Assembly (NCBI GenBank): GCA_977018835.1
Contig: OZ361258.1
Coordinates: 3,782,001 to 3,846,000, forward strand
Length of the DNA stretch: 64,000 bases
Reading direction: 5' to 3'
DNA from: Minutocellus sp. GHC0000111
Taxonomy: Eukaryota
Numbering within the stretch: position 1 is the first letter of the stretch; every line of letters starts with the position of its first letter. The translations under genes were made by a program, and so were the position numbers. Below are positions 1,321 to 64,000 of the stretch, piece after piece. The notes under the pieces were generated by a model. The model searched no databases. It was not told the origin of the DNA and saw only the letters and a program-made list of their open reading frames with translations.

Positions 1321-2040
1321 ATGGACAAGTACCGACTCGTAGGGGAGCGTCGACCTGGGGAAGAGGCGGCCGCTGCAGCTGCTGCATCTGCATCCGCTGT
1401 AGCTGACGAGGGCGACAGCAAGCCTCCTGCTGTCGACAAATCGGCGCAACCGGCACAAGCAGCATCTGCTGGTGCCAATGCGGGAGAGCAGGCATCAGCA
1501 GAGGGAGCAGGTGCTGCCACCAGCGGTACTGGTAGTGGTAGTAGTGGTAGTTCTGATCCCAATGAAATACGCATAACGCAGCAGGGCAAGCCACGGAATT
1601 ACATCTCGTACGCCATCGGCTTGTTCGACCAGGAGGACAATGACAGCATCACTCTCAAGGCGATGGGGAGGGCGATCAACAAATGCGTTACGATTACAGA
1701 CATCCTCAAGAGGAAGATGCCTCTCCATCAGATCACCAAGCTATCGTCCGAGGAGATAATCGACGTCTTCGAACCGCTCGAGGAGGGCCTTGATGTGGTG
1801 GAAAGCAAGCGTTACGTCAGCTGTATGGTCGTGACGCTGAGCAAGACTGGAAAGAATATGGATACGAGCGATATCGGATATCAGGCACCGCTCCCCCTCG
1901 AGGACATACCTAGGTACAACCTGGAGATTTCAATAATAGGCCAACGTTTGATCGATCAGAAACTCCCACGGCAGCCGGCGGCGGTGGCGGTAGTGGAGGC
2001 GGAGATTCAACAACAGTTATGGCAAGGTAGCAGATTCTAA
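1321..2040 (+). CDS. Alba-family (Rpp25-like) nucleic-acid-binding protein; C-terminus shifted by an 8-bp insertion at 1909-1916
   Basis: MDKY start resembles plant Rpp25-like Alba. Core NEIRITQQGKPRNYISYA...ITLKAMGRAINKCVTITDILKRK...GYQAP. Removing CCTAGGTA gives a Gly-rich tail ending at TAG 2028-2030. Confidence 0.88.
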   Translation: MDKYRLVGERRPGEEAAAAAAASASAVADEGDSKPPAVDKSAQPAQAASAGANAGEQASAEGAGAATSGTGSGSSGSSDPNEIRITQQGKPRNYISYAIGLFDQEDNDSITLKAMGRAINKCVTITDILKRKMPLHQITKLSSEEIIDVFEPLEEGLDVVESKRYVSCMVVTLSKTGKNMDTSDIGYQAPLPLEDIPRYNLEISIIGQRLIDQKLPRQPAAVAVVEAEIQQQLWQGSRF

Positions 2041-14563: not shown

Positions 14564-15350
14564 AAGAAAGATGTCATTAATGTGTCGTCAATGGAAACTA
14601 AATGTCATGAACAATTCCAACTAGATCTAATTTAGCAAATCTACACACACTACAACATATTGTTCATGCAGAATGTACCGGTATGTAGAGTCTACCGCGG
14701 GGGTGATGATGTTGAGCATGCACCAGCTAGATCTAGCTCTGGCGCAGTTGCGTCGTCGTCGCATCGCATGCATGTGCCTAGGCAGGCAGGACACGAGCTC
14801 GCACCTTTCGATGGTGGCTGGTGCATTTCTCTACTCATTCGTAAAGAAGGCGCTGGCTGGTGGTAATAAGAGTAAGGAGCAGAAGGCATAACTTATCGCA
14901 TAAAGGGATAAAAAGGATACATGTAATGTAACTTCGTTTACCGGCACCAGTGGGAGCTAGCTACAGCATTGTTGGGTGGAAGCTACGGTACGTGATGAGT
15001 ATACGTACGTAATGTCGTCTGTCCATCGTCCTCGGTACCGTAGTACCGTAGTACCTTTCGGTTTCAGAGGATTTGTAGAGGGTATACCAATAACCCCTAA
15101 AAAAAGGTCATTCTTGCACCCATTTCTCATTTCCCACCACGTGTTTTGTTAGTCGACATTCTCTTCGGGAGGAACGCAAATGCTCCTCAACTCGTGGATA
15201 TCTACTGGACCTGCTCATTCAGTAGGTTGCCACCGACCAGTAGTATCCACTGAATTCGCAGGTCCAGTAGATTCTGGCAGGAACACACACGTGTTTTTTG
15301 GTCCCCCGCACACCCTCTCTCTCACACCGCAACCCGCAAATTTTGTGACG

Positions 15351-18237
15351 ATGACGACGACCAACCAGACCACGCCCAAAAAATACAAACGCAGCAGAAC
15401 TTCGTTCTCAGGGAGCAAGAGAGGCAACACCAAGGCATCCAGGAAGGCGGCAAAGGCGGCAGCTGAGCCGAAAACACCATCGCCGAGCGCAAACACGTCG
15501 AAGAAGCGGCCACGGTCAAATTCGCCCGCCAAACCGTCACCGTCGTCGGCGAAGAAGAGGACGGCCCCTCCTCCTATCCCCATGGCCTTTCTCCTTGCAG
15601 CAGATGTCATTCGAAGGGCTGGTAAGGATCTGTGGTGGAGAGTAACCCCCGATTCCTGCGGCAAAGATGACATTTGTGTTGGTTCTCGGCAGAAATGGGA
15701 AGGAAGAAGACGTCCTCCCTGCTTTCATCGAGGCCGACTTGTTGCGTTCCAAGTCCGTCGGTGGAGGAAAGTGTGAGCTACAGTACAACGAGGAAAAATG
15801 GAAGGACATGCAGCAACAACATCTCAAGGAGCATTGTAGTTTGAAGTTGCACTTGTCGACGTGTCGGCCGAGAGGGAAGACAAGAGACGCAGGGCGCTTT
15901 GTGTTTGTGCTCACAGGTTGCGTAAAAAGAAGGAGGACAACCACCCGAAATTCTCTGGACCGGAGGGACAGAAGGTGCACGAGAAAAGAAATCCCGATGA
16001 AGTTCTGTTCTCTGGGCGCTCGACTGTCTTAGCTACTAAGCTAGGTGAGAGGTTGTCAGCTCACAGAAAGGAGGCACAGTCAGCGCATTGCGAAGCAAGA
16101 GCAAAATCACTAGTCGACGAGGCCAAGAAACTGGGTTGGATGCCAGCAAGTCTCCTCAGCATACTGAAGGGAACTGGTGATACTTCCGCCACTGAAGCAG
16201 CTGCAGCCTCCCCCAATGATGAAGGTTTAGGAGGAGCCGATGCTTCCATTGTCTGTGCCACCTCCAGTGACATTGATGAACAGGTAAAGGTCGCTCTCGG
16301 CCTCGACTTTGTTGTTCGGATGGCCAACGATGACATGCTCCGTCCTCCTCGTCCCAATGCAACCGTCACCGAACCAACACCAATCAGAAAAGAAAAGCAG
16401 GCGAATGAAAGAATGCGGTTCAGCGCCGTGGCTCTCGCGGATTGGTGGGGATGCGGCGACCCAACTCGCACGTGTGAAGACCGGCAACAAATTGCAACTG
16501 CCGCGTGTCGGCAAGTTGCGCACGATCACGGTCATGCCAAGTCAACCGGTGGTTCTCAGCTTTACAAGTGGAGAGACCAGCTCTACAAAAGCCTTACTGA
16601 TGGCATCAGCAATCCCATCGGCGGAAAGGAGGTTCGTGGAAGGAAGAAGGCGGCATGCACTGACATGATCGAGGAGAAGGAGCCAGGACATCTCCGCGAG
16701 CTGCATCGGCATGCTACTCGGATGAAGGGTGCGATGGCAACCTTTAAGGAGCTAGCTGACTGCATGAGCGCAAAATCAGCTACTCCAGATGAAGATAGGC
16801 TGACAATTAGTCTCCATCGTCTTCAGCTTTTTCGCTGGTGGAAAAAGCAAGGCGGTAAGGAGAAGTCGTCGATCGAGAAGCCGAGGCTCACCCCCGAATG
16901 TTGTAGGAAGCGACTTGATTGGATCGAAAAGTGGGAGGACATTACGACCGATCCCAACATTCCTTTAGCGTATCTTGATGAAAAGTGGTTTTACGCTGCT
17001 ACTCGGCGACGAAAGATCAAGATGTTGCCACTTTCTGACGAAGAACTAAGCAGTCCGAACCTCGCGTCTGTCCATGCTTCCGAGGCAAGCCCGAAAATTC
17101 GATCCAGAAGACACCCTGTCAAAGTTATGCATCTTGGAGTTGTTGGCCGACCAATGAAGGATGAAACCAAAGACGTTGATTTCAATGGGCGCATCATGAT
17201 CAAGAGAGTCGCCAGGGAGCAGAAGGTGGAAAAGCTTACGCGTAATCAGAATTTCTCTCCAGATGCTAAGGTCAACGATGCGCTAAAAAATGACAAAGAT
17301 TGGCGCGACATTTACGACGAGAATGCTGACATGACCGCCGGCCATCTTTGCGACCACATTGCCGAAATCTACGGCCTTTCTGAGTTTGTTACAGAGCGAT
17401 TGGAACTTCAATACGAGGACTATAAATCCGACGGTCAGGCAAAAAGTCGCAAGCATGCCGCTGTTGGCTACAATCAAAAGATCTCGAGTCTCAAGCGACA
17501 CACTCCTGATAGCAATGGAGAGAAGGTGAAGGTTGAGATCGACGACCTTGAGCTCGGGGTGCGGCATCAACGGGGCGATAAGGTTACCAAGGACTGTAGC
17601 TGCGACTCCAAATGGATGTTGGAGACTATGAATGAGGTCGGGAAGGCGATTCGAGACGCACATCATTGGGTGAAGTGGGATCCACAAAATATTCAGGAGT
17701 CTGATGTTATGTGTCTTATGATGGACAATGCCGGCGGTCATGGGTCCAATGAAGCAGTTGAGAAGTACACCGAGGACCTCAAAAACAAATATAAGATTGA
17801 GATAATCCAGCAGGTTCCTCGGTCGCCCGAGACAAATGTTCTTGATCTCGGCATCTGGATGTCTTTGCAGTCGGCCGTCAAAAAGGAGCATCGCGGTCAG
17901 AAGAATGATGCGAATGCTCTTGACAAGAGACTGTGATGAAAGTATGGGCCAATGTCGCATCAAAAGAGGCCTTTCTCAATGTATTTGGGTTAGGGTTAGG
18001 CTAACCCTAACCCTAACCCTAACCAGTGATATATAACAACATCAAGAGAAGTCGTGGCGGTAACAATCTTGTGGAGACCAGACGGGGAAAGGCTGGTCTC
18101 TCGCAAAAATTGCCGAGGAAGAAGCTGAAGAGGATGGTGAACCACTCTGGCCAATTGATGCTCCCGGCGAAGATGATGACATTGAGGACGACATAGATGA
18201 AAATGATGAAGACGATGGAGTCATTGATTTGCTATAA
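15351..18237 (+). pseudogene. Frameshifted DD39D transposase of element 1 (about 950 aa if repaired)
   Basis: YLDEKWF (D1), MDNAGGHG (D2) and PRSPETNVLDLG (D3), with 39 residues between D2 and D3. Frameshifts near 15665, 15925, 17928 and 18100, plus a telomeric tract at about 18000. Confidence 0.88.
17987..18024. repeat. Head-to-head interstitial telomeric repeats GGGTTAGGGTTAGG|CTAACCCTAACCCTAACCCTAACC
   Basis: Read directly from the sequence: TTAGGG units immediately followed by CCCTAA units. Confidence 0.9.
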
Positions 18238-18564
18238 CTTATCATAGCATGTCCATTTCTATTCATTACATTTTGATTTGGTGCTTCCAAAAATGCATTT
18301 TTTTCCCGGGGTGAGGAATGCAAATGTCGAAAAAAAAATCATCACATAATGTACATTTATTGGTTCTGGTGCACAATATCTCTCGACTATATGTAGAAGT
18401 TGGTGACCATAACTTGGTTCTTGCCCCGACTTCCATATTGGCCGTCATTTATTCCTCGGAGTTAGAAAAAGTGAGCTTGGATTTTTGGTCTTGTGTGGTC
18501 GTGTTTCTAATACGTCATCATCACGTCACTTTCAAATCCTCTGAACTCGAAAGGTACCTACGCC

Positions 18565-18586
18565 TAGGCCTAGGTACCTAGGCCTA
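18565..18586. repeat. Perfect 22-bp palindrome TAGGCCTAGGTACCTAGGCCTA in the spacer between the two mariners
   Basis: Self-reverse-complementary; built from TA, CC and GG units. Confidence 0.9.
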
Positions 18587-20445
18587 CGAGGTCAGATTCG
18601 CGAGAAATCGACCGCCCGGATTTTGACTGCTTTCGAGGGGATTGAAAAGCGCCTCGAAGAATAGTCATGCTGAAATATTTAAGAAAATGGCTATTTTTAC
18701 TCTAATTTTGATTTATCTTCATGTGAAACAATAATTCGGATAAGACTTTAGATTTCAGCGGCTCTAATCAAATGGACGCGTTCGTCGCACTTGGACCGGT
18801 ATACTGCTTCCCAACGAGTGCCGATGATTCATCTGATTCGGCCGCCTTCCGTTCTGTCATCGACGATCTTGCAACGGCGACCCGGCGGTATACTGCACCA
18901 TGTCTCTTTGCAATTGCCAAGTGCAGGGAGCAGGCAAAGGTGGACTATTCGGTGCTGTCCAGCGCAGAGCATGGTGCACGATTTTCGGGATGGATGAAGG
19001 CGTATGGTGCTCTACCTGCATCTGAGAAGGCGATGTGGGAGATGAAGAGGAGATCTCATCTGGCTATGCAGCCATACATTCGAGATGTTATTGTTGATGC
19101 TCTGATACGAAATCCTCGGGAATCTTGGCGGGAGCTGGAGGTGGATGTCAACTTTTGGTGTTCCTACTCGGCAATACGGCGGTGGATAATGTCGCGGGAA
19201 GGGTTCCGGTACTATGCCGAAAGGATCATCCCTCTCCTTACTACACATCAGATGGAGAAACATTTGGCATTTGCGCGGAAATTCCGAAACAATTGGGGGC
19301 TCGGCGGTGGCAAGTTTCTCCTTGTTATGTTCGATGAGAAGTGGTTTTGGGGCTTGGTTCTTCGATCGCATGCCAAGCAAGTTGCAGAATTGGGTATTGA
19401 TCCTCGGTCCTTCTCGGCATATCACCGAAATCACATCAACAAGTGCATGGTGGTGGCTGTCACTGCCTTGGCTTTTATTGACAGCATTGAGAATGGCGGC
19501 ATTGCGTTCAAGCTTGGACTTTTTCGGGCTCAGGCGCATAAAATTGCGAGGCAGATGGTAAGGGAGGCGGTGCGGCAGGCAGATGGTAGAATCAAATATT
19601 GCGGCCCGGTGGTTCGGAAGAAAGACGATCTATACCTTGTGGATTGCGCGGTGACTGGATGCAGCCATGGCACCCTTGATAATCCCAAGTTCCCACTGAA
19701 AGCTTTGTTTGAGAACAAGATATTTCCGGATGTTGAGGCTTTGGTCGGACCTGGCGGAAAGTTTGAAGGCTATGTCCCTATTTTCCAGGGCGACAATGCT
19801 GGGCCCCATGCCGAGACTGAATTTGTGGAATATGTGGACGGAAGGATACTGTCGGGACAAGGGATGGCGTTGGGAACCTCAGGCCCCGCAAATGCCCCAT
19901 ATGAATGTTCTTGATCTGTCTGTTTTCCCTTGCATGCCAAAGCAGCATACAATGTTGTGCCGCGATCGGGAGGGGCTGAAGGTTTTGACAGAGGATCAGA
20001 CTTGGGATGCAGCGGAGGAAGTTTGGATGGGGCTGGAAAACTGGAAGATCGCATCGGCATACATCCAGGCTCATAGAATTGCAAAGAAGGTAATCGTTGC
20101 AAAAGGCAACAATGATTTTCTTGGAAACGGTGAAGGCATTCATGTTGGGGTGCGAAAGGATTTCAGGCCGACTGAAAATGGCATGGTTCGGATAGATGGG
20201 AAAATTATCGCTCCTCCTCCTGCTGATCCAACCATGGATAATTAGTCCTGCGGTGCTTTTAAGTTATATTGTGTTTAATAATACTAGATTGGATTGTAGA
20301 TCTGGATACTAGCTGCTGCAATACATGTACTTTGCATCGTACATGTATTCAATGCCGGTAGATCTAAGATTCAGGCGGTTGCGGGCCCAAAAAGTCGCTG
20401 TTTTGGTCCCGACCCTGCGCTCGATTTCTCGCGAAACGGACTTGG
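18587..20445 (+). mobile_element. Tc1/mariner (DD39D) element 2, 1.86 kb, with about 29-bp imperfect TIRs and TA flanks
   Basis: Left TA|CGAGGTCAGATTCGCGAGAAATCGACCGC versus reverse complement of the right end TA|CCAAGTCCGTTTCGCGAGAAATCGAGCGC; shared 15-bp exact core TTCGCGAGAAATCGA. Confidence 0.85.
18772..20245 (+). pseudogene. DD39D transposase of element 2 with a single +1 frameshift at about 19837
   Basis: FDEKWFW, QGDNAGPH and PQMPHMNVLDLSVF. Removing one G in GTGGACG joins ORFs 18772 and 19709 and restores exactly 39 residues between D2 and D3. Confidence 0.88.
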
Positions 20446-20712
20446 TAGGTAGGATAGGAAAGCTGCATGCGAACCCGGAGGCCGTTTGAAGATGGGTCTG
20501 TCCGTCCGCCCGAAAGCACTCCTGACTGGAAGCCATCGTTGATCAGAGTTGAGCGTAGTAGCGCGCGTTCCTTTCCTTCCGATTCTCATTGATCTTGGCT
20601 CTCTTCTAATAGTACCAGTAGTTGGCTCCCCCCTTGTCGTTCCTTTCCGTGTGGCAGAGAACGCACACATCTTGAACTCGTCGTCGTGCTATCGATCACC
20701 CAATCATCAGTC

Positions 20713-48036: not shown

Positions 48037-48562
48037 ATGATTGTGCAGGCGGCAGCAAGAAGCAGCCTGTGTGGTCATATCCCAAGATCGACCAGTAATG
48101 TTGCTGCTGCTCTTGCCACTTCTGCAAGCGGCCGCTCATTCTTCTCTCTCTCTGAGGCAGAGTGCGGCTGGAAGCCATCTCTTCTCACTCCCAGCGATGT
48201 ATTTGAAAGAGCATCGTCGCTTCCATGGGGCTTCATCGATCAGAGGCATATCTTCGACCACGTCATGCCATCCCTCGCAAGTCAGCTTTCATCAACTAAT
48301 GGTGATGCCGCGGCTGCCATCGCAGATGCGTCGAGTGCAGCAACTGTGGGTGCAGAGCCGGCTTCGTCCATTACGAGTAGTACAGGAAGCATCAGCGATC
48401 GAATCCATTCTCTCAAGTCATGGATGCAACACAAAACATGTCACGCCCGCGCGGTTGGGCAGTACTTCCAACAGGCCGGGACATGCCACGCCGAATTTAA
48501 GGAAGGGGCATAACTGGCATATCAGCACATTGCTGATCTTTGGAGCAGTGGGCAAGCGCTAG
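48037..48562 (+). CDS. Possible small mitochondrion-targeted protein, probable frameshift near 48433
   Basis: Arg/Ser/Ala-rich transit-peptide-like N-terminus; overlapping +1 frame continues to 48562; no family recognised. Confidence 0.3.
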
Positions 48563-50001: not shown

Positions 50002-50237
50002 CTAAGAGTCTTGAACCTCTTGGCGCCCATTGGATCCCTCCCTAATTGGCGGCGTGGAAGCTTTACCGGTGGCCGCAGACGTTGTGCGATTGGAGATGCG
50101 GTTGAGGAAGGAATCTGTAGCGGCCGCGGCGGCACGTGCGGCGCCGGAGGTGGCGTTAATGATGGGGTGGTCCTGGGCGATGGTAGAGGAAGCGGACCTT
50201 GGTCTTGTAGTATGGCGCAGTTGATGATCGCCCCGGT

Positions 50238-50271
<34 letters not shown>

Positions 50272-51003
50272 GTGCTCTTGGTCCTCGTCTTCGGATTCCT
50301 CCTCGGACTCTTCCGACAGGACCAGCGCTTCTTCCAGGATCTGGAGCTGATCGACAGAATCCTCTTCCTCGCCACTATCCTCCTGAGGGCGCTCCTGCTC
50401 CTGGTCTCGCTCCATCTGCGCCTCTTCCTCGTGCTCTGGTCGGACGTGGAGCTGCACGTACGCCTCGTCTTGGGCCACCCGCTGGACGGCAAGCTCGCGA
50501 GACCAGCGTGAAGCCGACGCCGCCACCTCAGCCAGGGCATCCTCATCGAATACGTCCGCGTCGAAGTGCTCGTCCTGCAGGTCGAGGACACCGTGAGTGA
50601 CGGCCTCCTTGTTCATCCTGCGCTGGTCCATGTGCGCCTGACTGCGCATGTGCTCGAGACCACGGCCACAGTGCTCCTCGTCGTGGTGGTCCTCGGGACC
50701 GCCCTGCCGGAGCCGCATGATGTTTTTGACCACGTCTGCCTGCGAGGCCTTCTCGTCGGCTTGGGTCACCCACATCGCCTCATACTCCTCCTGCCTAAGC
50801 TCCTCGATGGTGGGAATGAGGTATATCCTCGTCCTGTTGGCAAAACGAAGCCTATTGCCGGAAAGCCGCATGCGACGGGAGGAGGATCCCGATTGTGTCA
50901 AGGCCGGTGGTGCCCTCAGCACGCTCTGCTGGAGCGCCGCGCTGCCGGTATCTCCACCACCAAGCGACCCTCCTGAGTCGGTTCTATTGGTTTGCGGTGC
51001 CAT
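50002..51003 (-). CDS. Diatom-type hypothetical protein (LRF...MW...CGRGLE family) with acidic and poly-Ser tail
   Basis: 333-aa ORF; RLRFANRTRIYLIP, MWVT, HCGRGLEH and AVTHGVLDLQ; (AGC)n at about 50239-50270. Confidence 0.7.
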
Positions 51004-51518
51004 GTGCTGCTATTGACGATTGGTTGGATGTCTTTGATTGGGTTGTGTGAGCTTGCGCTCAATGTGCGATGCCGTGATTGTTGCAGTTGTTTTTGTGATA
51101 TCGTGAAGGGGAAGCACGAGCTGCAGCGCAAAAAATGGGTGGTAAAGCAAAATTGAGACAAACAGAAAAGAAAAATGTCTTTCGGGCAGCTGGATTTCTG
51201 TTCCTGACGCAGATGGAGAAACCAATCTGCTTTGTGCTTTATTCTCAGGGCCTAATGACATCAAAAGTGAAGTAATGACGCGGTTTTGAGACGACGGCAT
51301 CTCATGTTGCAATGTCTCTTCTTTGGCGTCTCGAGCTTGCTTCTTGAGGTTGTTGTCGTATCGCTGCCATCAATCGCGTCTCTCCAGGTTGATGACATGA
51401 CTGCCGACCGGCGACGCTCATGTGGAACTTCATGTACGAGCCTCGCACGTACATACAGATGGCTGGCCGGCCAAGGATGAATCTTTGGGGGGGTCTAAAA
51501 ATAAGTTGACTATACAAG

Positions 51519-51574
51519 TAGCAGATCTAGAGCTAGAGATCTAGATCTACGTAGATCTGCGTACATGTAGTCTA
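51519..51574. repeat. Mosaic of short TA-flanked palindromes (TAGATCTA, TACGTA, TACATGTA)
   Basis: Read directly; similar tracts at about 4173, 7976-8051, 14621, 44817, 49353-49385 and 49981-50004. Confidence 0.7.
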
Positions 51575-51692
51575 ATCAGAATCTTCACATTGCGTCGTTG
51601 ACTTTATTACATGTAGTTAGATCTACAAGTGTGTAAAATACATAGCTAGAATAAATATTACAAATCAGCAACTATATCTACCAGTGCAGACT

Positions 51693-53735
51693 CTACATGC
51701 TATCGCGATTGCGCTCCAAGAGACGGCAGACAGCCTCTAATTGTTTGGCATTGGTCTTTTGAGAAAATTGTAAAAAGTATTCCACTGTTTCTGGTGTGAT
51801 GGCAGGCTTGAGCATCCTTTCACAAAGCTGTTTCAAATGCTCCAAGAAGTACAAATCTGCAAGTTCGAGGAGATTTACAACTCGCTCGATGGCTTGGCCA
51901 TCGGCGGCGCCCGTCGATGCCACGACAACGTCCACCTTGGGTGTCTGCCCTGTGTATATGTATTCGATCATGGTGAGGAAGGCGTCGTATGTGCAATTGG
52001 GAATTTCGATTTCTGTGCAATCGCTTGAAGATTCTCGGAATCCACCGGTGCCACCGCCATGCTTGGTTGTGAACATGGCCTGGAAGCAGTCAGAAACCAG
52101 CGAAAGTATCAGTTTGTGACCGTAAATCTCACGTCCTTCAACAATAAAGGTGACGTCCGAAAATTCCTCGTCGTTGTAAAAGTGTCGGAGACGACGCTCA
52201 CACAGCTGGATACTTGTAGGCTCAGCTATTTCTATGTAAGGGATGGGATCCGTGTCCAGAACGAAGAAGTCGTTCAAATAGTCCGAGCCACAAGAACCTC
52301 CAAAGACAAATATCTGCCGATCAACGGCTGTCGCTGTGTGCCCTGCTCGCCGGCCAGGACCATTGCCCTGAACAAATATAGTTGCAACGCCATCTTCGTC
52401 ATTTGGATTTCCGCTCTGGGATGCAGCAGAGGCCAGCGTGGCGGCTCTCTGTGCGCCAATATCTTGCGCTCTCCAATCGGAAGGGGCATGTTCGTTCGAA
52501 TCGCCGTCGGTCTGTCCTGACTGGGAAGAGTCTCCGTGCTGGGAATGCTGCGATGCTGCACCCCCCGACGTGACCGAAGAATTCTTAATCTGAGTCACGT
52601 TGAGCCAGGCCATTTCCTTTCTGTCCAAGATTTGCAAATCATTGAAGCATTTGGAGCTTGTGCCCGATCCGCCAAAAAGGAAGAGCCGGCCACGAAGTGC
52701 TGTTAGGGTCATGCCGGCTCGTGGGTAGGGTAACTCGCCACCAATACGAGGACGGGTCCATACTCCCGTCTCCGTGTCAAGGATGTGTATATCATTCAGC
52801 CGTTCTCTGCCGTTCCAACCACCAAAGATGAAGAGTTCGTTGGTCTCCTCGAGGACGGCAGATGAGTGGTTGGCGCGTTGTTGTGGAGCCTCTCCTCTGG
52901 TCTGGACCTGCCTCCAGGTGTATGTGTCACAATCGAGCGCATGAAGATCGTTCAAGTATTCCCTTCCGTTCCCACCTCGAAACAGGTAGATCTCATTCTT
53001 TTTTGGAATATAGTCGGCAGAGTGCATATTGCAGGGACCGGGAGGCGTGCCTCTTACAGTTGGCTGGTACCAACGGAGAGCTTCAACCCCACCACTTATA
53101 TCGAGAACATGCATGTCGCTCGCAGCCAAGGGACCAGTGCCCAGCCAACCCCCGATGATGACAATTCGAGCATTCTCCCCGGACGGAGACGTTGCCAATG
53201 TGGCCGTGTGACCATTCCGACCCGGAGGAGGAGTTCCCGACACAAACAGTCGGCCGAGTGGGAGGTTGCCGCCGCCTGTTCCGCGGGAACCAACGCTGCC
53301 ACCGTTTCCCGCATTCCTCCTGCTGGGGTCGAGGGCAACCTCTAGCCCAATGATCCTCTCGGCCTCCACATCGGGCATGCTCCCTCCCCGAATTCCACCG
53401 GCGCCGACATTGCCACCGCCGCCACCGACACCAGCAGCTGCACCTCCTCCCGTGGGCCTTCCTCCCATGGCCGCCGCAGCTGCGGCCGCCGCAGCGGCAG
53501 ACGGAGAGGCGGCCGACGACGGAGCCTGATGCTCGACGCGGCGCCACCGCTTCTCGTTGAGACTGTAGATCAGAAGGGTTTGGTGATTCCTCCTCCCGTC
53601 GTACCCGCCGAAGCAGTACAGCAACCCGTCGTGGAAGGTGACGGAGTGATTCTTGATCGTCGGTGCCGCTTTGGCGTTGGAGTCGTCGGGGGGAGAGGGC
53701 TCGGCCCAGCGCATGATCATGTTGTCGTTCGACAT
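51693..53735 (-). CDS. Kelch-repeat plus BTB/POZ protein (LZTR1-like)
   Basis: Multiple R.xH...FGG...LND kelch repeats; BTB FSDVTFIVEGREIYGHKLIL...IEYIYTG. Confidence 0.92.
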   Translation of the reverse strand: MSNDNMIMRWAEPSPPDDSNAKAAPTIKNHSVTFHDGLLYCFGGYDGRRNHQTLLIYSLNEKRWRRVEHQAPSSAASPSAAAAAAAAAAMGGRPTGGGAAAGVGGGGGNVGAGGIRGGSMPDVEAERIIGLEVALDPSRRNAGNGGSVGSRGTGGGNLPLGRLFVSGTPPPGRNGHTATLATSPSGENARIVIIGGWLGTGPLAASDMHVLDISGGVEALRWYQPTVRGTPPGPCNMHSADYIPKKNEIYLFRGGNGREYLNDLHALDCDTYTWRQVQTRGEAPQQRANHSSAVLEETNELFIFGGWNGRERLNDIHILDTETGVWTRPRIGGELPYPRAGMTLTALRGRLFLFGGSGTSSKCFNDLQILDRKEMAWLNVTQIKNSSVTSGGAASQHSQHGDSSQSGQTDGDSNEHAPSDWRAQDIGAQRAATLASAASQSGNPNDEDGVATIFVQGNGPGRRAGHTATAVDRQIFVFGGSCGSDYLNDFFVLDTDPIPYIEIAEPTSIQLCERRLRHFYNDEEFSDVTFIVEGREIYGHKLILSLVSDCFQAMFTTKHGGGTGGFRESSSDCTEIEIPNCTYDAFLTMIEYIYTGQTPKVDVVVASTGAADGQAIERVVNLLELADLYFLEHLKQLCERMLKPAITPETVEYFLQFSQKTNAKQLEAVCRLLERNRDSM

Positions 53736-54001
53736 GTTGGGCAGCCACGTTCGAAAGTCGTTCGTGTATTACGTGGTTAGCTGCGTATCACGGAATTATT
53801 ACAATTACGACGAAGTACTATTCCTGTCGGCAAGACGAATGCCCCAGCAGTTGGTGCTCGAAGTTCGAAGTCGCGTTGGGCGTTGGGCATACACCGCCGA
53901 CGTCACGTCGGCGATGTTTGATTAGCTTTCTGAAAATCTTCCACTCATCCGGATAGGATGGCTGCCGTGCCGCAACTGTGTTCGCTTCGGCAATCCGGCA
54001 A

Positions 54002-55322
54002 ATGAGGCGAATAGTGGGCCATATGCTTCTTAGCCTTCATGCTTGGAGTGATTTGCTCGTCATTCGGGCAGTTCTCTTCGCTGGGCAAGGTGCTGCTGGA
54101 GATGCAATCGCAAACAGATGCGGCGGGCGTGACAATCGCCACCGGCAGTTGGCAACAAAAGCACGCCCAACAGCTGCGAGGCAACAAGACTCGTCTTGAG
54201 CCTGATCATAGCGACGACTACATTTTTGACGAGGTGGATCTAATGGAAGAGGAGATCGAATCTTCCATGGCGTCGATGATGGGAAACTTTTCAAGTGTTG
54301 AGGTGGAAAGAGCTGTTGTTCGCCATGATCGGTACCTTGTGGACTGTTGGTCTCATCTTGACAACTTTAGTCGAAAGCAGGCGGCAAGATATATGAAGCA
54401 TGCGAGACAACGAAAGATGGAATCGAGTGAGAGACGGCGGCTAACTGTCGTTATTCTTACCATCAATCGCACGTTGCCGTATCTACTGGTCCTAATTTCA
54501 GTTTTGATACGCGGCCACACGCCGAAAGATTTCATTTACGAGTTGGATGTGCATGTAGCAAACATTGAGCGACGAGAGGGGAGAGAATCGTATCATTGGT
54601 TTGACGTCCTGAGACACAAGCTTCCGTTTGTCACATTTCACAGCTGGACAGAGAGGCATGAGGAATACGATAGCATCACAGATCGAACCGAGTGGTACCT
54701 GGCTCATCAACGGTTGGACTACATACGGGCGTTGAGAGTGTGTCAGGAGAAGGAAAGTCCATGGTGTGTCGTGATGGAAGATGATGCCGTGCCGTGCGTG
54801 GGGCTTGTTCGCAAATTTCGCAAATTTGTCGATCGAGAAGAATATCAGGTACACGGACTGCGCCCTGTTGCTCCGAGGAAGAAGCTCGGTGGTGGCCAAG
54901 TAATCGATTTTTCTGCGGCAAGCAACAACCGGAGAGGTGGGCCCATTCCTGTCCCCCTGGCAAAGGTATCAAACGTAAAGTTGTATGAAGGGGGTGGAGA
55001 AGTAATTGCACAACCTGGCGGTGGGAACGAAGTACAGTACGAACCTCACTTCTCGAATCAAGCTTATGGATTGGTCGCTGAAGCATTCCCACAACATTCA
55101 GTGGATCAAATCATCGCCCACCTTGAGGCGAACGATAAGAGGGGGAAGCATCCAGTCGATCTGGAAATCAATGGCGATTTCAAAAAGGCCAATGGTCTGG
55201 ACCGCATCGTCATGGTCCCTTCATTAGTCGATCATATAGGCTTCATATCAGAGCATAAGAAGGAACAACAAATCAACGAGAAAAGAATATCATCGTCGGC
55301 AAACTTTCGGCTGACTGGATGA
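54002..55322 (+). CDS. GT-A fold glycosyltransferase (PGAP4/GT25-like); probable +1 indel at about 54017
   Basis: QRLDYIRALRVC, VVMEDDA and PSLVDHIG. Removing one G gives the type II anchor MRRIVAICFLAFMLGVIC. Confidence 0.7.
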
Positions 55323-55763
55323 TGGAATGGAAATCAACTGGGCGTCGCATGGGGGCAAATACATTTAAGTATAGGTTTGGGGGGTAGCATCATATTTAGT
55401 CTATCCATAGATTTACCGTGCACTCCCAAAAAGTCAATTTTAGTAAAAATTAGTCTGAGAAAGCTGTATTCAAGAGTGGCGCGATTCAAATTGTCGGCAT
55501 CAACCGTCGGATTTGCTTTTCTGGCCAAAGAGGAAACGGAAGTATCGCCGATCCTCACTAAACTCAAAGAAGTTTCTTGGCGACAAGGTGGGCGATATCT
55601 CCTCTGTTTAGGATTTCGTTGCAATTGTTGAGTTTGACTGCACCACTTTCCGCTATCGCTTTCAGCTGCGCGAACAGAGGGGCGTATCTTTGAACATCCA
55701 ACCCAATTAATACAACCGAAACAGTCCCAATTGTAGCATCACAAACAAATAAATAATATAATC

Positions 55764-56681
55764 ATGACGGATGTTCCGGTTCCAGATCTGCCGGGGTTAA
55801 CTCGGATTAATTCCTGGCCCAAATTTTCTCCGAGGACATCCGATAATGGGACAAACCTGAGCCTCAGCATTCCAGCCACGTCTTCGTCCTTTCAAGGCAA
55901 CGACTTCTTTGATCGTGAAAGTTCCAAAGGAGCAGATTCCACCGCTCTTACCACAGCCAATACTACTGAGCAGTCTGATTCCGCAGGCAGCGAACCAATC
56001 GCCGCTGCAAATATTGACTCTTCGCTCGTATCCACAAGCCCTTTCGATGCGTCAATTTCAATCATTGTGGAGGCAAAAGATGATGTGCCTGATATTGCAG
56101 ATGAAAAGTTGGGGAAAGATTTGTCTCTGGATAATGATGGCAATGCTGGTGAGGAAGAGCAACCAAGTATTCCTCGAATGCAAGAGTCAGACGATCTATC
56201 ATCACTGGGTGCATCGAATGATGGGATTGAAATGGCAATGTCCGACGATTCAGATGATTCGTTCACTTATATGATGAGATACTGTCGCTGCATCGAATCG
56301 AACAGTTATGCGGCCAACGGAGAGGGCGATCAGGTTGCAAAGGGAATGGAAGGGGGTATTCAAAGCACGAATACTGACGGCAATGATTCTTTGGCTGCCG
56401 ATGGTGAATCTTTTACTCCAGATCTATCCATTTATGGTGGCAGGGCAAACGAGAAATGTGGAGGAGGAGGAAGAGCATCATCGAAAGAAAAGCGTCTACA
56501 TGTTCAACCGGCCTTTACGAGCCTGGATGTTCTTGACATCATGACAACCCCTCGAGAAGAAGAAGAGACGAGGCCAAAGAAGAAGAACGATAGTGAAAAG
56601 ATTGGGAAATTTTCTAGCTTTGACGTCTTGGGTGTCCTCTTCGGTAGCTGCATTGGCTGTGGATGTGGTGGAAGTGTTTGA
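55764..56681 (+). CDS. Hypothetical acidic, probably disordered protein
   Basis: 305-aa ATG ORF flanked by AT-rich UTR-like DNA; Cys/Gly-rich C-terminus. Confidence 0.6.
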   Translation: MTDVPVPDLPGLTRINSWPKFSPRTSDNGTNLSLSIPATSSSFQGNDFFDRESSKGADSTALTTANTTEQSDSAGSEPIAAANIDSSLVSTSPFDASISIIVEAKDDVPDIADEKLGKDLSLDNDGNAGEEEQPSIPRMQESDDLSSLGASNDGIEMAMSDDSDDSFTYMMRYCRCIESNSYAANGEGDQVAKGMEGGIQSTNTDGNDSLAADGESFTPDLSIYGGRANEKCGGGGRASSKEKRLHVQPAFTSLDVLDIMTTPREEEETRPKKKNDSEKIGKFSSFDVLGVLFGSCIGCGCGGSV

Positions 56682-57208
56682 GAGTTTTTGATTTTGTTTC
56701 AACTGACGACTGAATGAAGCTGATGGATGGAAAACCTGGCTTCGCAAACCTGACCCAAAATTTTCCTGAAAAAGATTCTTTATGTGTATAATTATTAGAA
56801 ATGGAATGTATAGATCAACCGATATCGAACGTAGCGGGCGTGGTGGTGGTACTACCGGTACCAATATCCGAAAAGGAAAAGAGAAAAGACAGAAGAGGTG
56901 GTCAGAAAGTGAGCCATGCCGGCTCGCAGCCTTTAGAAATATTGAAAAATAAAAGATATCCCGATTGCATGATGGACGATCATGAGAAAACACAGAAACT
57001 GTTCAAGAAACCAATTGACAGTTGTTTTGAAGTGTTTCGCGATATAAATCTATTTCAATATCACTAAAGCAGAGCAGAGCAGTGCGCATTGGCCTTCGGT
57101 ACTTTTGAACACATCTCATGCACATCGGTCGTACTAGTATTTACTGGAAAGGACTGAGAACTTATTGCTTTTGTTGCAGTTGAAGCACAAAATATACCAT
57201 ACGCCAAG

Positions 57209-59154
57209 ATGAACAACGAAGAGGATATGGCAACTGCCGATGCGTCGGACATGAACGACATTGATTTGGAGGGTGACGGACCCGACGCTTCGCAGCTTCC
57301 CTCCGTTGAGGAGGTTCGGACGAACCAATCCCTTGCCCCCGACGCGAACGAGACCAAGCGCCGTCGGAAGAAGTGCTACCTGTACAGCGCCATCCTCCTG
57401 ACTCTGGCCTTGATCGGCCTCATCATTGGTGTGGCGGTATCCAAATCCAAGTCGAGCTCGGGGGGCAGCGCTCAGTCGGTCGCACCTCCGGCGCCCGTGC
57501 CCAGCCCAACCGCTTCGGCGCCATCCCCAACCCGGCCGGCCCCGACCGCCGCCCCGGAGATGACGGATGCCGAGCGCGAGAAGGCCGCCCGGGCCTTCCT
57601 CATGACGACCGGCGTCTCCGACGAGGACGACATGACCAACTCCGGTACTCCCCAGCACAAGGCCCTTAAGTGGATCAGCAAGGAGGACACCCTCCGAGTT
57701 CCGATCCCGTCGAACCCCGAGGACCTTGGCACCACCAAGGCCCGCAAGTTCGTCCAGCGTTACCTAGGTACGCCCTGGCCACCTTCTACTACGCCACCGA
57801 GGGAGACTCGTGGTTCTACCCCTTCTCCTTCCTCTCCGGCAAGGACGAGTGCGAGTGGTACGAGATTCACACCGAGGGCGAGGAGGTGTACTTCTGTGGC
57901 GCCCACTGCGAGGGCGGATCCGACGAGGGCGCCGTCAGTCAGATCTGGCTCCCCAACAACGACATGGCCGGTACCATCCCCCAGGAGCTCGAGCAGTTCA
58001 CCAACCTCCGCGTCTTTGCCCTGGAGTACAACCTCAATATCACCGGAACGCTCCCCGATGCCTTCCATTCCATGCCCGACCTCAGCGTCATTGTCCTTTC
58101 CAACAACATGATCGAGGGCAAGATCCCGTCCAGCTTCAAGAAGCTGTCCAACCTCGAGTTCCTCGCCGTCGATGACAACCAGATGGAGGGCAACCTCAAC
58201 CACATCAAGGACCTCGACACCCTCAAGTACGTGTATCTGGAGGACAACTTCTTCGCCGAGTCTCTTTCGGACTCGACCTTCTCCGGATGGTCCAAGCTCA
58301 AGCAGTTGGACTTGTCCGACAATGAGCTCAGTGGTACCATCCCCGCCTCCCTTCTCAACCACGAGCACCTAACCGTCCTGGACTTGCACGACAACGATCT
58401 GACTGGTCCGATCCCCGAGGTTCCCAGCAAGCAGGACAAGCTCACCTACCTCGCCCTTCACAAGAACTCGCTCAGCGGACCCATCCCCAGCACCATCAAG
58501 CATCTTCAGGCCCTGACCGACCTCGATCTGTCGCACAACCAGCTCACCGGAGACATCCACGAGTCACTCAAGCACCTCAACCTGGTCTACCTCTTCCTCG
58601 GTGAGAATCAATTCGATGCCAACCCCGTCCCCGCCTTCCTCAGCGGTATGACCAACCTCACCGAGCTCTCCCTCAAGCATACCAACCTGCACGGTCCCAT
58701 CCCCGACAGCTTCGGTGATTTGACCGACCTTTACCTCCTCGATCTGGACAAGAACAAGCTGACTGGTACCATCCCCGAGTCCCTTGGAAACTTGGACAGC
58801 CTCATTGTTCTCATGCTCAACCGCAACCGCCTTACCGGCACCGTCCCCCAGGCGCTCGGCAACCTCCCCGCTCTTGGCGTTCTCCTCGTTGATGGCAACG
58901 ACGGCCTTTCGGGATCACTCGACTTTATGTGCACCTCGACCGGCGGCAACGGCACCTTCTTCGCTCTTTCGGCCGACTGTGGCGGTGATTCCCCCACCAT
59001 CGACTGCAGCAATGCTTGCTGCAACATCTGCTGCGGCGACCCCGACGAGAAGTGCGACGACATGGGTTGGACTGCCAACTACGATCCCATCTGGGAGCTC
59101 AGCTACGAGCGGTACCGCTTCGAGTTTGACATGGAGAGGAGGATGAGGGAGTAA
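57209..59154 (+). CDS. Diatom-type LRR receptor-like protein with N-terminal TM; frameshifted by an 8-bp insertion at 57763-57770
   Basis: TM helix, Pro-rich stalk, PQHKALKW, QRY|ALATFYY, ECEW, many LxLxxNxLxGxIP repeats and ADC....C..CC. Strong codon bias continues across the break. Confidence 0.92.
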
Positions 59155-59529
59155 ACCGAACTGGAGCAATGGAAAATTGCAGCGATGAAAAAGGATTGGA
59201 ATAGGAAGGAATAGTGGATATCGCAATCCATTGAATCATTGGAATGGACTTTGGAGGGGAGGACTTAACTTTGTGCACAAAGAAGCCTGCTATATGCTCG
59301 GAATGATAACGTGGTCCGTGCAATAATTGCATGTGATAACCGAGGCGGGTATGCACACAATGAAACAATTTACGCTTCGGGTCAAAAATTGAGGTTTGAA
59401 TCTGCAATTTTTTTCGTCTTGACCCATCAATATGATAACAGTCCCGAAAGCAAGACGACTTGAAGATACTATTAGATAAATATATACTTAACATGTTTTG
59501 ATTGATTTATTGCAGCAGTGTCTACTTGA

Positions 59530-60900
59530 CTACGATGTGTGGCAAGAGTCGGCAACTCTTTGCAATGCTTCGAAAGGGATGAGACCGATATCCTTCGGAA
59601 CTGCCAATCCGTCTTCACTCGTCAAAAAGTAGACCATTTCCCGGGCATTGTCAGATAAATTGGTCGAGGCCTCGGCCACAGCATCGGCGTCGAAACCATC
59701 AAGAGTTGACAGTGTGTCGCACAGTTCACGCAGTGCGGCGTCTGCATCTTCGATCGATGGACATGCAGCCTTAGCAGTGTCTACCCATGTGACGCGGTTG
59801 CGAATGATTCTAGCGGCAACCTCCATCGTTGGTGTTTCCGCTAAATATGCTCGATCCTTGCCATATATGGACCAGACTTTGTTCGCATCAAAACTCTTCT
59901 TTGTAGGAAGGTTGGGAATAGATTCCTCTCTCAATTCCAGCTCGGGATGAAACTTTCGTAGCAGATTCTGCCATGTCTCTGCGCGCCCCTTGACTGCACA
60001 GGAATAGCATGGTATCTTTTGATCGAGCGCATCGTAAAAATCCTTTACGGCTTCAAATTCTCGAGATCTCGGTGCCAAACCTTTATATAACATGGGCAGC
60101 TGCGCCGCGAAACGTTCCAAATATGGTGCCCAGTATATATCGGCCGCGGTAATGTCTTCTCCCGCAATGAATTCCCCGTCCTCATATTCCTCCAGCACTT
60201 CATCAATCTCCTCCAAGGACACCTTCAGTTTGAATTTTTGGACCACATCATCGTCTCGACAAACCTCTGCCGTCCCAAGCTTGGATAGAGGGTCCTTCTC
60301 CAATGCGCACTCTTCCAGGAAAATAAATGGAGTCAGAGATGATGGCAGGGTGTACCTCGGCATGATTCCCTCAAATCTGCGCTCGATACTCGATCTAACG
60401 ATGTCCACCGAGATGGAAATGCTGGGATACAAATCAGGCTTGATGTTGGAGTATTCTTCCTGAATTTTTTCAAGGATCTGATACATGTCCTTCCCCTCTT
60501 GGGCCGTCCCATCGGGCCATTGGAGCTTTGGCAATCGGTCCGGTTGCGAGTAATCATCGTCGACCAAAACTTTTACATATTCGGCATTCTTCACCTCCAG
60601 AGCAAAGAGCGCCCTCTCACAGTTGGGACACCAGTGATTCCGGTCGACATAAATGACAAGCTTGCCAGATAATTCAGCACCGTCCATTGCTGCCTCCTCC
60701 AGCACCAATGGACCATCGTGTTTGGTGCTGGGAAGCTTCTCTTGCAGTTCGATCCATCCGGGCAGAGCCGTAGCCGGTAGCAGGTTTGCATTTCTTCCTA
60801 CATGTGACCTGCTGCCACCACTGCATGGAATGAACGCATGTGATGCTGGTATGTGAAAAGCGAGAAGAGCGCAGGTCAGCAAGGTGAAGAGGAGACCCAT
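59530..60900 (-). CDS. Plastid-targeted glutathione S-transferase-like protein
   Basis: Signal peptide ending SHA-FIP; WCPNCER...LEVK; GEFIAGEDITAADIYWAPYLERF. Confidence 0.8.
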   Translation of the reverse strand: MGLLFTLLTCALLAFHIPASHAFIPCSGGSRSHVGRNANLLPATALPGWIELQEKLPSTKHDGPLVLEEAAMDGAELSGKLVIYVDRNHWCPNCERALFALEVKNAEYVKVLVDDDYSQPDRLPKLQWPDGTAQEGKDMYQILEKIQEEYSNIKPDLYPSISISVDIVRSSIERRFEGIMPRYTLPSSLTPFIFLEECALEKDPLSKLGTAEVCRDDDVVQKFKLKVSLEEIDEVLEEYEDGEFIAGEDITAADIYWAPYLERFAAQLPMLYKGLAPRSREFEAVKDFYDALDQKIPCYSCAVKGRAETWQNLLRKFHPELELREESIPNLPTKKSFDANKVWSIYGKDRAYLAETPTMEVAARIIRNRVTWVDTAKAACPSIEDADAALRELCDTLSTLDGFDADAVAEASTNLSDNAREMVYFLTSEDGLAVPKDIGLIPFEALQRVADSCHTS

Positions 60901-61115
60901 CTTAGTGGAGAACGAGAGCAAGGGATATTCCAATAGGATAATTCATCAACTCTTTTTTAGAGGCGCCTCTTCGATCTCAGCTCTCCGTGTGCTTGCGATC
61001 GTCATCGTCAGCACTCTCGGTCGACGCACTCCTAAGATTGATATTTACCGAATGGCTGAGAAAATGCTTTGATATGTGGAGTGTGACCGAGTAGCCGCAT
61101 CATTGTTTCTTCACG

Positions 61116-63537
61116 ATGGCGTCTACACGAAGCGCCGCCGCTGGCGAGGCTCAACCGCCACCCAAGCCGCTACCACCGGTGGTTGCAAAGCCTCCACCAC
61201 TGGTCGTCGCCGATGTACCTCTCAGTACAACCAAGGCATTGCTAATGAGTGTGATTTTTCCTAAGATTCATCATGTCTACGTGCCGCCGCCCACGCCCGT
61301 CGTTGAGGAACCATCGCTTTCACAGGATACCGCCGAATCCGATGGTACTGGAAGCCGTGGCGATGGTGCCAATGAAAAAAAGAGAAAGCCAGATGAAGTC
61401 GTTACAGAAAGCGGTGTTGGTGAAACAAAAGGTGGTGGAAAGAAAAAGGTTGGGCATGTGAGAACCGGTAGCGTCGGTGTCGGTGACAAGTCAGTGCTGA
61501 TCGTGAATGTAGACAACACTGGTGATGCGACGAAACCGAAAAGCATTGTTGATACGTTGGTCGACACTCTTGTCGATGCTGGGAAAGGCAAGAAGGATCA
61601 AAAGAGCCAAAAGAAAAAGGATGTTGTGACAATTGTCGGAACGGAGACTGTACCTTCGGTCGACATCGATGCCGAGCCAGCCAAACCGAAAGAGGACACA
61701 AAGACTGCTGCAGCAGCCGCCGAAATTGTGAAATCCGACGAAGATATTGACAAAGCAGAGACTACTGATGGACCGGCCAGTAAAGCTACAGACGCTTCGT
61801 CTGTCGCCTCGAATCCAGAAACTGCTCGCAGAATCAGTGAACAAACTGATGACAACGAGAGAGATGAAGATGCCAATTCCATGGTCGAATCCCAGACTAA
61901 CGATGCCAATGACAACCAAACCAGTGACGAAAAGGTTGCAGATGAGGGTGGTAATATCGACAATAATGATGACAATGAGGGAGAAAACTCAAAACATGAA
62001 ATGGTGGGATATGTTGAGGGGGACGATGAAAGGGGAGAAGAGAAGGTCCAGCATGTAGTGACTGCTGAAGAGATGGCCACCGTTGTGCGACTACCTACTG
62101 CAGCCGAGGCTGCTGCAGCTGCAGCGGCTCAGCAAGGACCCGATGCGCGTCAAATGGCAGCAGAAGCCACCAAAAAGATACGAACGTTCTTTGGCATTGT
62201 CAACGCCGAAGAGGACGAAAAGCCGACCATTCATCTGACAAAGGCCGAGGCGGTTGATGCTCTCAAACATGAGAATGAGATGGATGATGATCTGGCTCCC
62301 AATACTGCCATTCGCGTCGAGGCACTACTTCGACTGACATTCAAGGATCTATTGGCCGAGGGTCATCTCTTCAATGCTCCAATCTACACCGACATCAAAA
62401 CTACTCACGATGACGATGATGAAATGTGGTGCGAACTCTCTGTCATGATCAAAGGCGCATCAATTGGTTTGGTATTGGATCGGTTAGAGCGGATAGGAGT
62501 TGGAAGTAGTGTGGGCACATTATCGATATATAAGGCAGAGCTCTGTCGGACTGCGTACGACAATGGAAAGCCTACCGATGCCCTATCGCAACGAGATGCC
62601 CCCAAGGCTCCTGCCCCTGGAGGAGGTGCCAAAGATGGTGCCGATTCCAAAGTGAACAAATCGGAGCAGGGCACCAACAAAGCCGCTGTCCCAGGAGGAG
62701 AAGCTGGAGAAGCACAAGCCAAAAATATCGAAGCTGCCCGGGCCGAGTGGAAGAATGCAGCGAGTCGTCTCCGAGTGGAGCAGGTAAAAGAGCAGATCGT
62801 TGAGCAGTCTGTGCTGTCACTCGACTTTCTCGCTCTGCTTTTTTTCGCTTCCATATTGGCAGGAATCGGTCTAATTACTGACTCTACTGTTGTAATTGTT
62901 GCCAGCATGTTGGTGTCCCCAATCATGGGTCCTGTTATGGGCATGGTGCGTAACCAATTTGATCTTTTTTGTTCAATAATAATATTGATGGTTGTTCGCT
63001 TCGTACCTCACTTCTCGCAACCGTCTCTTTCACTTCATAATATCACACACACAACAATTCTGTAGACATTCGGTGCCAGAGTAAATGATTGGGCGCTAGC
63101 CAAGTCCTCGTCGATTAATGAAGTTGTGGCATTACTCATTTCTGTGGCAATCGGTGGTGCAATTGGATTTACATCATCTTTCAGCAGTGGCGCTGAGGAT
63201 TGGCCAACAAATGAGATGCTGTCGCGAGGCGAACCAATGGGCCTTGTTACGGGTATATGCATTGCTATTCCGAGCGGCATGGGCGTTGCCTTGTCCATAC
63301 TGGGCAACAATACGGCATCTCTTGTCGGCGTCGCTATTTCGGCGTCGCTGTTGCCTCCAGCCGTAAACTCGGGCATCTGTTGGGCGCATGCGATCTTGGT
63401 CCGAGCTGGAGCGGTGTCCTATGCGAATACTGCGGATTTTAATTTCGCCCAGATTGGCGGAATCTCCTTCTTGCTTACGGTGGTGAATATTGTATGCATT
63501 TGGATCGCTGGAATGGCCATGTTTGCCATCAAGGAAG
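61116..63537 (+). CDS. DUF389 membrane protein; intron 62946-63065; 3' end missing after the donor at 63538
   Basis: LAGIGL..DS.VVIVASMLVSPIMGP and LVGVAISASLLPPAVN; the intron joins VMGM to TFGA. Confidence 0.85.
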
Positions 63538-63559
63538 GTAAGTTTATTCCTAAACAGCA

Positions 63560-64000
63560 CATCTGAAGTCGTTCAAATACATGGGTCAATATTCGACAAG
63601 GCGCTGCTACGGCGAATTTTCGTGTCGGGGGAAGAGGCGAGAAAGCGACTTATTAGACGCGTCATGATAAAAATCTTGGCTGCACAGCTACAGCCAGACG
63701 AATTCACCAGATTTACTTGGGCCACAGCGGGAGATAGTGCCGCTGCCGGTCACGGCAATCGATCCGGACAGAGTTACACAACCGTAATGGAAATGACAGT
63801 GCGCGATGCTTTTTCATCTGTGGGAGTCAATTTCGTTTCTCGAAATCACGGCATGAGGGGCGTGGTTTCCACACCCGAGCTTGCTTTCTGTAATGAGGCA
63901 GTCTATGGCAAGGACGTGGACGTTTTGAATTGGGATTTCACTGTGACGGAGGCAAGAGATGCTCACCGAATCATGCTTTGGACTGCAAGGACAGCTGCGC
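63560..64000 (+). CDS. Partial SGNH-hydrolase-like protein running off the window; no N-terminus visible
   Basis: Hand translation of an open frame absent from the ORF track: FTWATAGDSAAAGHGN..QSYT...RNHGM...PELAFC...DVDVLNWDF. Confidence 0.65.

Follow-up and report, generated by a model that had tools for sequence, protein, structure and literature searches.

How the same eight extra base pairs came to shift the reading frames of two different genes in one stretch of diatom DNA is the question raised by a 64,000-nucleotide region of a Minutocellus genome (the window, meaning the whole stretch that was analysed). The 10-mer TACCTAGGTA occurs exactly twice in these 64 kb, at 57761-57770 in an LRR gene and at 1907-1916 in an Alba/Rpp25-like gene, and each copy represents a net gain of 8 bp that shifts the frame, confirming the identical frameshifting insertion that an initial annotation of the window had reported in both genes. 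When the window was simulated 150 times with an order-4 Markov model, the string never appeared. The features concerned are as follows.

57209..59154, + strand: diatom-type LRR gene, approximately 645 aa when intact, split here
57761..57770: probable footprint TA-CCT-AGG-TA, net +8 bp, in the LRR gene (basis: sequence, frame switch, relatives and contig arithmetic)
1321..2040, + strand: Alba/Rpp25-like gene, domain intact, C-terminal tail of approximately 40 aa replaced
1907..1916: second, identical probable footprint, in the Alba/Rpp25-like gene (basis: sequence and relatives)

At the LRR site, the upstream frame (start ATG at 57209) continues for 116 off-frame residues to a premature TGA at 58109-58111, and the LRR-coding frame begins immediately past the site. 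A codon-usage score trained on 8,594 codons from the other genes of the window placed the frame switch within the 60-nt block containing 57761-57770 (upstream frame, +20.4 before the site and −18.7 after it; new frame, +15.3 after it). Judged from its sequence, the scarred allele would encode a 300-aa protein without any repeats (Pfam detected none in the upstream product) and is predicted to be null. Near its N-terminus, the LRR protein has a hydrophobic stretch that is likely a membrane anchor. For the Alba/Rpp25-like gene, both the Alba domain (residues 81-143) and the GYQAPLP motif precede the insert and the tail alone is changed, with stops at 2030 in the orthologous frame and at 2040 in the shifted frame; the tails of the relatives agree with the shifted frame of the window. 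Because this tail is too short for the codon-usage test (0.2 versus −2.8, an uninformative score at this length), the case for an insertion in this gene rests on orthologues. The description of the insertion as a knockout thus fits the LRR allele, whose repeats would be lost, and not the Alba allele, which keeps its domain, is not clearly a knockout and is probably tolerated.

Relatives of both genes indicate which state came first. With the downstream half of the LRR gene as the protein query, 32 proteins were recovered, and the six closest LRR relatives are single chains of 641-707 aa in which both halves from the window are joined without a gap. The junction reads QRYALA in all 35 of the LRR relatives that span it (36 were examined, the remaining one being a 30-aa fragment) and D-IQPGD is unbroken in all 23 close Alba relatives, counts that establish the existence of the intact state rather than the rarity of the scar, because protein searches favour intact alleles by construction. 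None of these relatives carries the insert, and the proposal that removing the 8 bp restores QRYALATFYY is borne out by the gap-free alignment of the two halves to intact orthologues. The closest intact LRR relative (P0261, 638 aa; found on 10 contigs, the longest of 5.3 Mb) is identical to the halves in the window at 630 of 638 aligned residues, and the source labels on close relatives are Minutocellus and Arcocellulus, which places the host among the diatoms of that group. Only the 8-nt registers of TA + CCTAGG give back the orthologous peptide in both genes. On the strength of these sequence comparisons, the unbroken state is ancestral and the 8-bp insert derived at both sites. The downstream LRR half differs from P0261 at six positions, including a change from W to C where 35 of 35 relatives have W, a weak hint of decay since the break.

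The insert is also present in public short-read contigs. Four of the 24 listed runs (X1, X4, X6 and X9) were compared over 46000-64000, with X19-X24 left out as sharing little or none of the stretch, and read support at 57761 takes the form of length, gap and depth arithmetic on contigs, with indels taken from the matches listed. The X1 contig at the LRR site covers a span of 1364 with a length of 1357, and all 41 of its gap letters are explained by five indels elsewhere; the X6 contig covers a span of 1134 with 1102 letters, of which the shortfall comprises 24 listed deleted letters and 8 further ones. Mean depth in the bin 57419-58019 was 114.4 in X1 (112.9 were the insert missing) and 12.4 in X4 (12.2-12.3 were it missing), values that fit 21 uncovered bases, and 19.2 in X6 and 26.1 in X9, which fit 29. 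The LRR insert is therefore present in two DNA-type runs from two studies (X1 and X4) and absent in two RNA runs from two other studies (X6 and X9), and it is a real allele. Of the checks set out in the initial annotation, the comparison with short-read contigs thus speaks against a polishing artefact, and the search for an allele without the 8 bp found one in the RNA contigs of X6 and X9, which are 8 nt shorter. Either X1 or X4 is possibly the source of the window itself, in which case polishing error is still ruled out and the two runs say little about allele frequency. In both runs, position 51750 and the transposon block described below each show two alleles, which fits a diploid of which the window would represent one haplotype, and the scarred LRR allele is probably accompanied by an intact one. 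Among the matches listed for the four runs, neither a joint nor a loose end marked an element-bearing allele at 57761, and no allele occupied by the candidate donor (element A, below) was seen for either gene. Elsewhere on this haplotype, the gene at 48038-49245 is interrupted by in-frame TAA stops at 48511 and 48742, positions at which CAA stands in other contigs (X4 and X6 share the first stop, and 0 of the 4 runs the second); it is a second broken allele, unrelated to the footprints.

A candidate donor lies in the same window, within a block of two transposons.

15054..18554, + strand: element A, 3,501 bp between flanking TAs, with inverted repeats of 22 bp at its termini (20 of 22 matching) and ends CCTTTC...GAAAGG
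15351..18250 (end approximate), + strand: transposase of element A, D...D39D, a broken copy
18555..18586: A-B spacer, containing exact CCTAGG three times, CCTACG once and TA three times
18587..20445, + strand: element B, a further mariner-like element of 1,859 bp between flanking TAs, with ends CGA...TGG (contig loose ends at 18585 and 20447)
14769..20445: 5,677-bp block (A, spacer, B and 285 bp), absent from another allele

The borders of element A come from an inverted-repeat search combined with reading of the sequence, and X1 contigs end near both. Its transposase (approximately 950 aa) has the motifs LDEKWF, DNAGGH and SPETNVLD, with 248 residues separating the first aspartate from the second and 39 separating the second from the third; D66, D315 and D355 are invariant in 25 of 25 aligned sequences, and the spacing of the second and third aspartates is 39 in 65 of 102 relatives and 38 in 15 (22 had no pattern match). 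A structural scan with a model of the catalytic region (pLDDT 76.9) returned Mos1, Metnase, Sleeping Beauty and the Mos1 paired-end complex as its top four (Z 10.1-10.7), tied with a retroviral integrase (Z 9.7); the best fold match was the Mos1 catalytic domain (Z 10.7, rmsd 3.2, 155 residues aligned), and Foldseek placed Mos1 weakly in its top four places (E 0.036-0.10). Pfam found no domain in the A transposase, a PDB sequence search with the A alignment gave a single spurious low-complexity match, and HTH_Tnp_Tc3_2 appeared under the cut-off in 2 of 6 relatives scanned and in none of the four closest. Taken with this modelled fold, the terminal inverted repeats, the TA duplication and the DDE/D triad in a mariner-type RNase H fold identify element A as Tc1/mariner-type (IS630-Tc1-mariner). 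Between the first two catalytic aspartates lies a long insertion (16782-17903; model residues approximately 164-266), approximately 100 residues of which match ubiquitin-like folds (FERM, Ras-association and Ubl) at middling scores (Z 5.5-6.4).

The A family is abundant and young. In X1, long contigs on A have depths of approximately 11,000-12,500 versus 90-120 on the flanks (approximately 100 times, depth being only a rough guide to copy number); 461 of 867 aligned contigs are at least 99% alike, and 275 members make up a protein cluster with 96% identity to A, the best 15 of them being mostly fragments on contigs of 13 different lengths. Element B is equally abundant. Depth in the X9 RNA library is approximately 100-1,600 over 15054-18554 versus 27 over the neighbouring gene, which is compatible with either transcription of the A family or DNA in the RNA library. 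Among 80 loci related to A, both ends were present in 6, with CCTTTC following TA in 4 of the 6; TACCTTTC or GAAAGGTA was found in 33 of the 80 (versus approximately 5 matches expected under uniform base composition) and TACCTAGGTA in none (163 kb, mostly element interior). A metagenome scan with element A alone gave no match.

In the copy of A in the window, short tandem duplications and a telomere-like tract disrupt the transposase, and the frame-breaking indels are, place by place, absent from many or all contigs. Without five indels that many contigs lack, a 956-codon frame results, with stops only in the telomere-like tract, and relatives of 945-961 aa exist. Indels private to the transposons of the window (15699, 15814, 15883, 17926, 18097 and 19836) resemble tandem duplications of 2-7 bp and may reflect either a fill-in repair bias or a trait of the assembly. 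The tract itself (17976-18031) is inverted, with TTAGGG units facing CCCTAA units, and approximately 27 bp of it are apparently missing from an X9 contig (by gap arithmetic); in X1, another copy of A carries an 18-letter patch of TTAGGG type where the window has 87 bp (15675-15763). These patches suggest that telomere repeats have been written into repaired breaks within the A family.

Element B has HTH_Tnp_Tc3_2 at E 1.5e-6, below the curated cut-off. It was considered as a possible donor with CCT...AGG ends (18583-20449) and rejected, as contig loose ends place its borders at 18587-20445, with ends CGA...TGG. That B sits inside a footprint was likewise rejected, as the allele without the block already has the right-hand TAGGTAGG; this allele is seen as a joint of 14768 to 20446 in X1 (depth 55) and X4 (depth 10.3), with 29 letters on the short side. 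Units of CCTAGG or CCTACG with TA occur at 18555-18586 and 20446-20458, and simple cycles of insertion and excision do not account for the CCTAGG units that stand head to tail at 18557-18582; some X1 and X9 contigs track the end of A to approximately 18567 and then diverge. The left part of the block (14769-15051) is 285 bp of low-copy repeated non-element DNA that starts near a CCTAGG at 14777, and immediately left of element A (15036-15053) is a tandem TA-CCGTAG-TA-CCGTAG-TA, possibly older scars or a slippage repeat.

What links the scars to element A is the correspondence of their bases. The inner 6 bp of the scar are the first three plus the last three bases of A, and the target TA is duplicated at both sites; with CCT at the start of A and AGG at its end, a single excision is enough to account for all six. 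We consider it very probable that the 8-bp insert is the footprint of a single cut-and-paste excision of a mariner-like transposon from the family copied at 15054-18554. A copy of this family would have inserted at a TA, duplicating it, and on its departure the transposase would have cut the non-transferred strand 3 nt inside each end, leaving a 3′ CCT overhang on each flank; end joining would then have kept both unpaired overhangs and filled them in, yielding TA-CCT-AGG-TA. We infer the 3-nt offset of the cut from the scar itself, and the repair path likewise. Both overhangs would be retained because two CCT overhangs cannot base-pair in any register (0 pairs at overlaps of 1, 2 and 3, versus 2 of 3 for CAG), and the Alba scar would be identical to the LRR scar because the same chemistry should produce the same palindrome wherever an element is excised. 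Tc1/mariner transposases are described as inserting at TA and leaving element overhangs at the excision site that end joining converts into a footprint (PMC3878927, PMC4561436), and their excision as producing 2-3 nt 3′ overhangs together with a TA duplication (PMC3878927); counting against a fixed scar, excision outcomes reported for rice are varied rather than stereotyped (PMC4423477). No empty A site with a TA-CCT-AGG-TA scar was found, the sole empty allele recovered being the one that lacks the larger 5,677-bp block. The initial annotation's attribution of the insert to Tc1/mariner excision by the element in the window is thus supported by ends of CCT...AGG around a duplicated TA, with the identification of the A family as the source drawn from six bases that another CCT-ended element would fit equally.

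That last point leads to the other routes by which a transposon could have left the same string. A different element with CCT ends, or templated repair that copied CCTAGG units into a TA break, would place the origin outside an excision of the A family, and the head-to-tail CCTAGG units of the A-B spacer, which simple excision does not explain, together with the templated inserts that occur at Tc1 breaks (PMC4490562), lend such routes some plausibility. Templated inserts copy nearby sequence, however, and there is no other CCTAGG near the site in either gene; moreover, both scars are exact and bounded by duplicated TA, so that we regard these routes as very unlikely. The initial annotation had offered two readings of its own, two successive footprints (CC, then GG) or one stereotyped palindromic repair product, and it is the second that survives, in a form close to a single excision. 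Two footprints at one site (TA-CC-TA, then TA-GG-TA) are a possible parse of the string, fresh TA targets do arise from a footprint, and Stowaway is known to re-insert next to an old one (PMC1925063). However, this route would take four events in a fixed order to produce the same 10-mer in two genes, whereas one excision suffices and the middle TA is already given by base 3 of the left end of A and the third-last base of its right end. Nor is there an excess of its one-step product: of the 13 TACCTA/TAGGTA sites in the window, the scars account for 4 and the A-B locus for another 4, which leaves 5 (TAGC tracts hold 4 of these) versus 5.4 expected for the whole window. Two successive footprints are accordingly very unlikely.

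Two further explanations would deny that the genes are broken at all. Were the 8 bases removed in RNA, by splicing or recoding, the genes would be functional, and it is in keeping with this that the insert is in both DNA-type runs and missing from both RNA runs, and that the scar contains AG-GT. Yet none of the 8-nt registers that give the orthologous peptide (7 in the LRR gene and 4 in the Alba gene) reads GT...AG, and each of the longer GT-AG introns that would restore the LRR frame (20, 59, 98 and 293 nt) deletes the conserved FVQR. The intact proteins P0261 and P0041 are on record from a 5.3-Mb contig, which makes unbroken DNA alleles very likely, and the RNA runs are other samples from other years, for which other genotypes or loss of the stop-bearing transcript suffice. 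We give removal in RNA scarcely any credence. An artefact of assembly or polishing is just as hard to credit: the copies of A and B in the window do have many short tandem duplications missing from most contigs, which makes this an indel-rich assembly or haplotype, but the LRR insert is present in short-read contigs from two runs of two studies and is not a tandem duplication.

Beyond the two scars, the window contains several other TA-bounded motifs.

6119, 14676, 34031, 45048 and 56853: TACCGGTA, non-coding
14918, 20322, 20340, 51562 and 51608: TACATGTA, non-coding, two of the five inside element B
47269: TACCATGGTA, TA-bounded, non-coding
49935: TACGATGGTA, non-coding, equal to TA, the first and last 3 bases of element B and TA (0.11 expected)

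Footprint forms of A with 2+2 bases (5 sites) and 2+1 bases (5 sites) exceed the whole-window model as TA-bounded matches, or candidate scars, and other combinations (3+0, 3+2, 4+4 and so on) are absent from the window or at chance level. Both TACCGGTA (5 copies, 0.25 expected) and TACATGTA (5 copies, 0.22 expected) occur in non-coding DNA only and may be older in-frame scars or promoter motifs, a role that has been argued for TACATGTA in Phytophthora (PMC3520976). One-mismatch matches to TACCTAGGTA at 44823, 45020 and 49372 were considered as element ends and rejected, as they lie in TAGC-repeat tracts around ordinary genes. That both exact scars are coding is unremarkable, with 1,381 of the 2,117 TA sites in the window coding (p 0.43).

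Excision footprints are textbook knowledge, but their variability usually hides them in natural genomes. A long, fixed scar tied to a resident family would make past transposon visits countable in the absence of the element. Two scars in 64 kb correspond to 31 per Mb (95% range 3.8-113), or approximately 16 per Mb (0.4-87) when the scar that prompted the analysis is discounted; if this density holds genome-wide, a wild diatom would carry a large load of excision-made frameshifts and, if so, the comparison of scarred with unscarred genes would measure gene dispensability. More speculatively, and in our view with the chances against it, large D39D mariner-like elements of a diatom clade that has been little described may be undergoing, or may recently have undergone, a burst in this marine species that leaves one invariant frame-shifting 8-bp scar, with hundreds of genes scarred per haplotype. 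If this is true, hit-and-run transposition would be a main source of loss-of-function alleles in wild populations, and TACCTAGGTA would be a countable barcode of excision rate and per-gene selection. An open-frame majority copy would, in addition, be a candidate native gene-tagging tool for diatoms.

A literature search found no paper on diatom excision footprints or on the transposons of this genus (subscription journals lay outside its coverage), and the closest comparisons are with better-studied systems. The both-end footprint of Tc1 in Caenorhabditis elegans is given as taCATGta (PMC3520976, citing Eide and Anderson 1988) and its overhangs as non-complementary 2-nt 3′ extensions (PMC4490562). 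As in that scar, a duplicated TA here surrounds the terminal bases of both ends in a palindrome with unpairable overhangs, whereas the present scar has 3+3 bases and shifts the frame by +8, compared with 2+2 bases and an in-frame +6 for Tc1; the both-end form is called rare for Tc1 in the source consulted and is here the only form shown to be an insertion (2 sites). Plant mariner-like and Stowaway scars (Osmar5, Ppmar2 and Triticeae Stowaway) share with A a D39D transposase, a TA target and 1-4 nt of end bases between TAs, and are likewise able to disrupt coding sequence (PMC9632168, PMC1925063, PMC4561436), with 1-4 nt left by Osmar5 and Ppmar2 (PMC9632168). Their ends start with CTCCC and their scars vary, in contrast to the CCTTTC ends, transposase of approximately 950 aa and two identical scars described here. 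DD39D/Guest ends, too, are reported to begin with CTCCC (PMC8472432, PMC4423477), so that the 39-residue spacing of A fits this group and its ends do not (CCTTTC in A and in 4 of the 6 complete relatives). Sleeping Beauty and Frog Prince, whose canonical footprint is given as C(A/T)GTA (PMC3878927), resemble A in their 3-nt overhangs and stereotyped scar at TA; the CAG overhangs of Sleeping Beauty pair at 2 of 3 bases and collapse to +5, whereas the unpairable CCT of A would give +8. Natural footprints of the same kind have been described in grasses (PMC1925063, PMC4423477). Footprints of this kind have thus long been known, and what the present locus adds to them is identical scars in two exons, insertions proven by orthologues and a matching young element in the same window.
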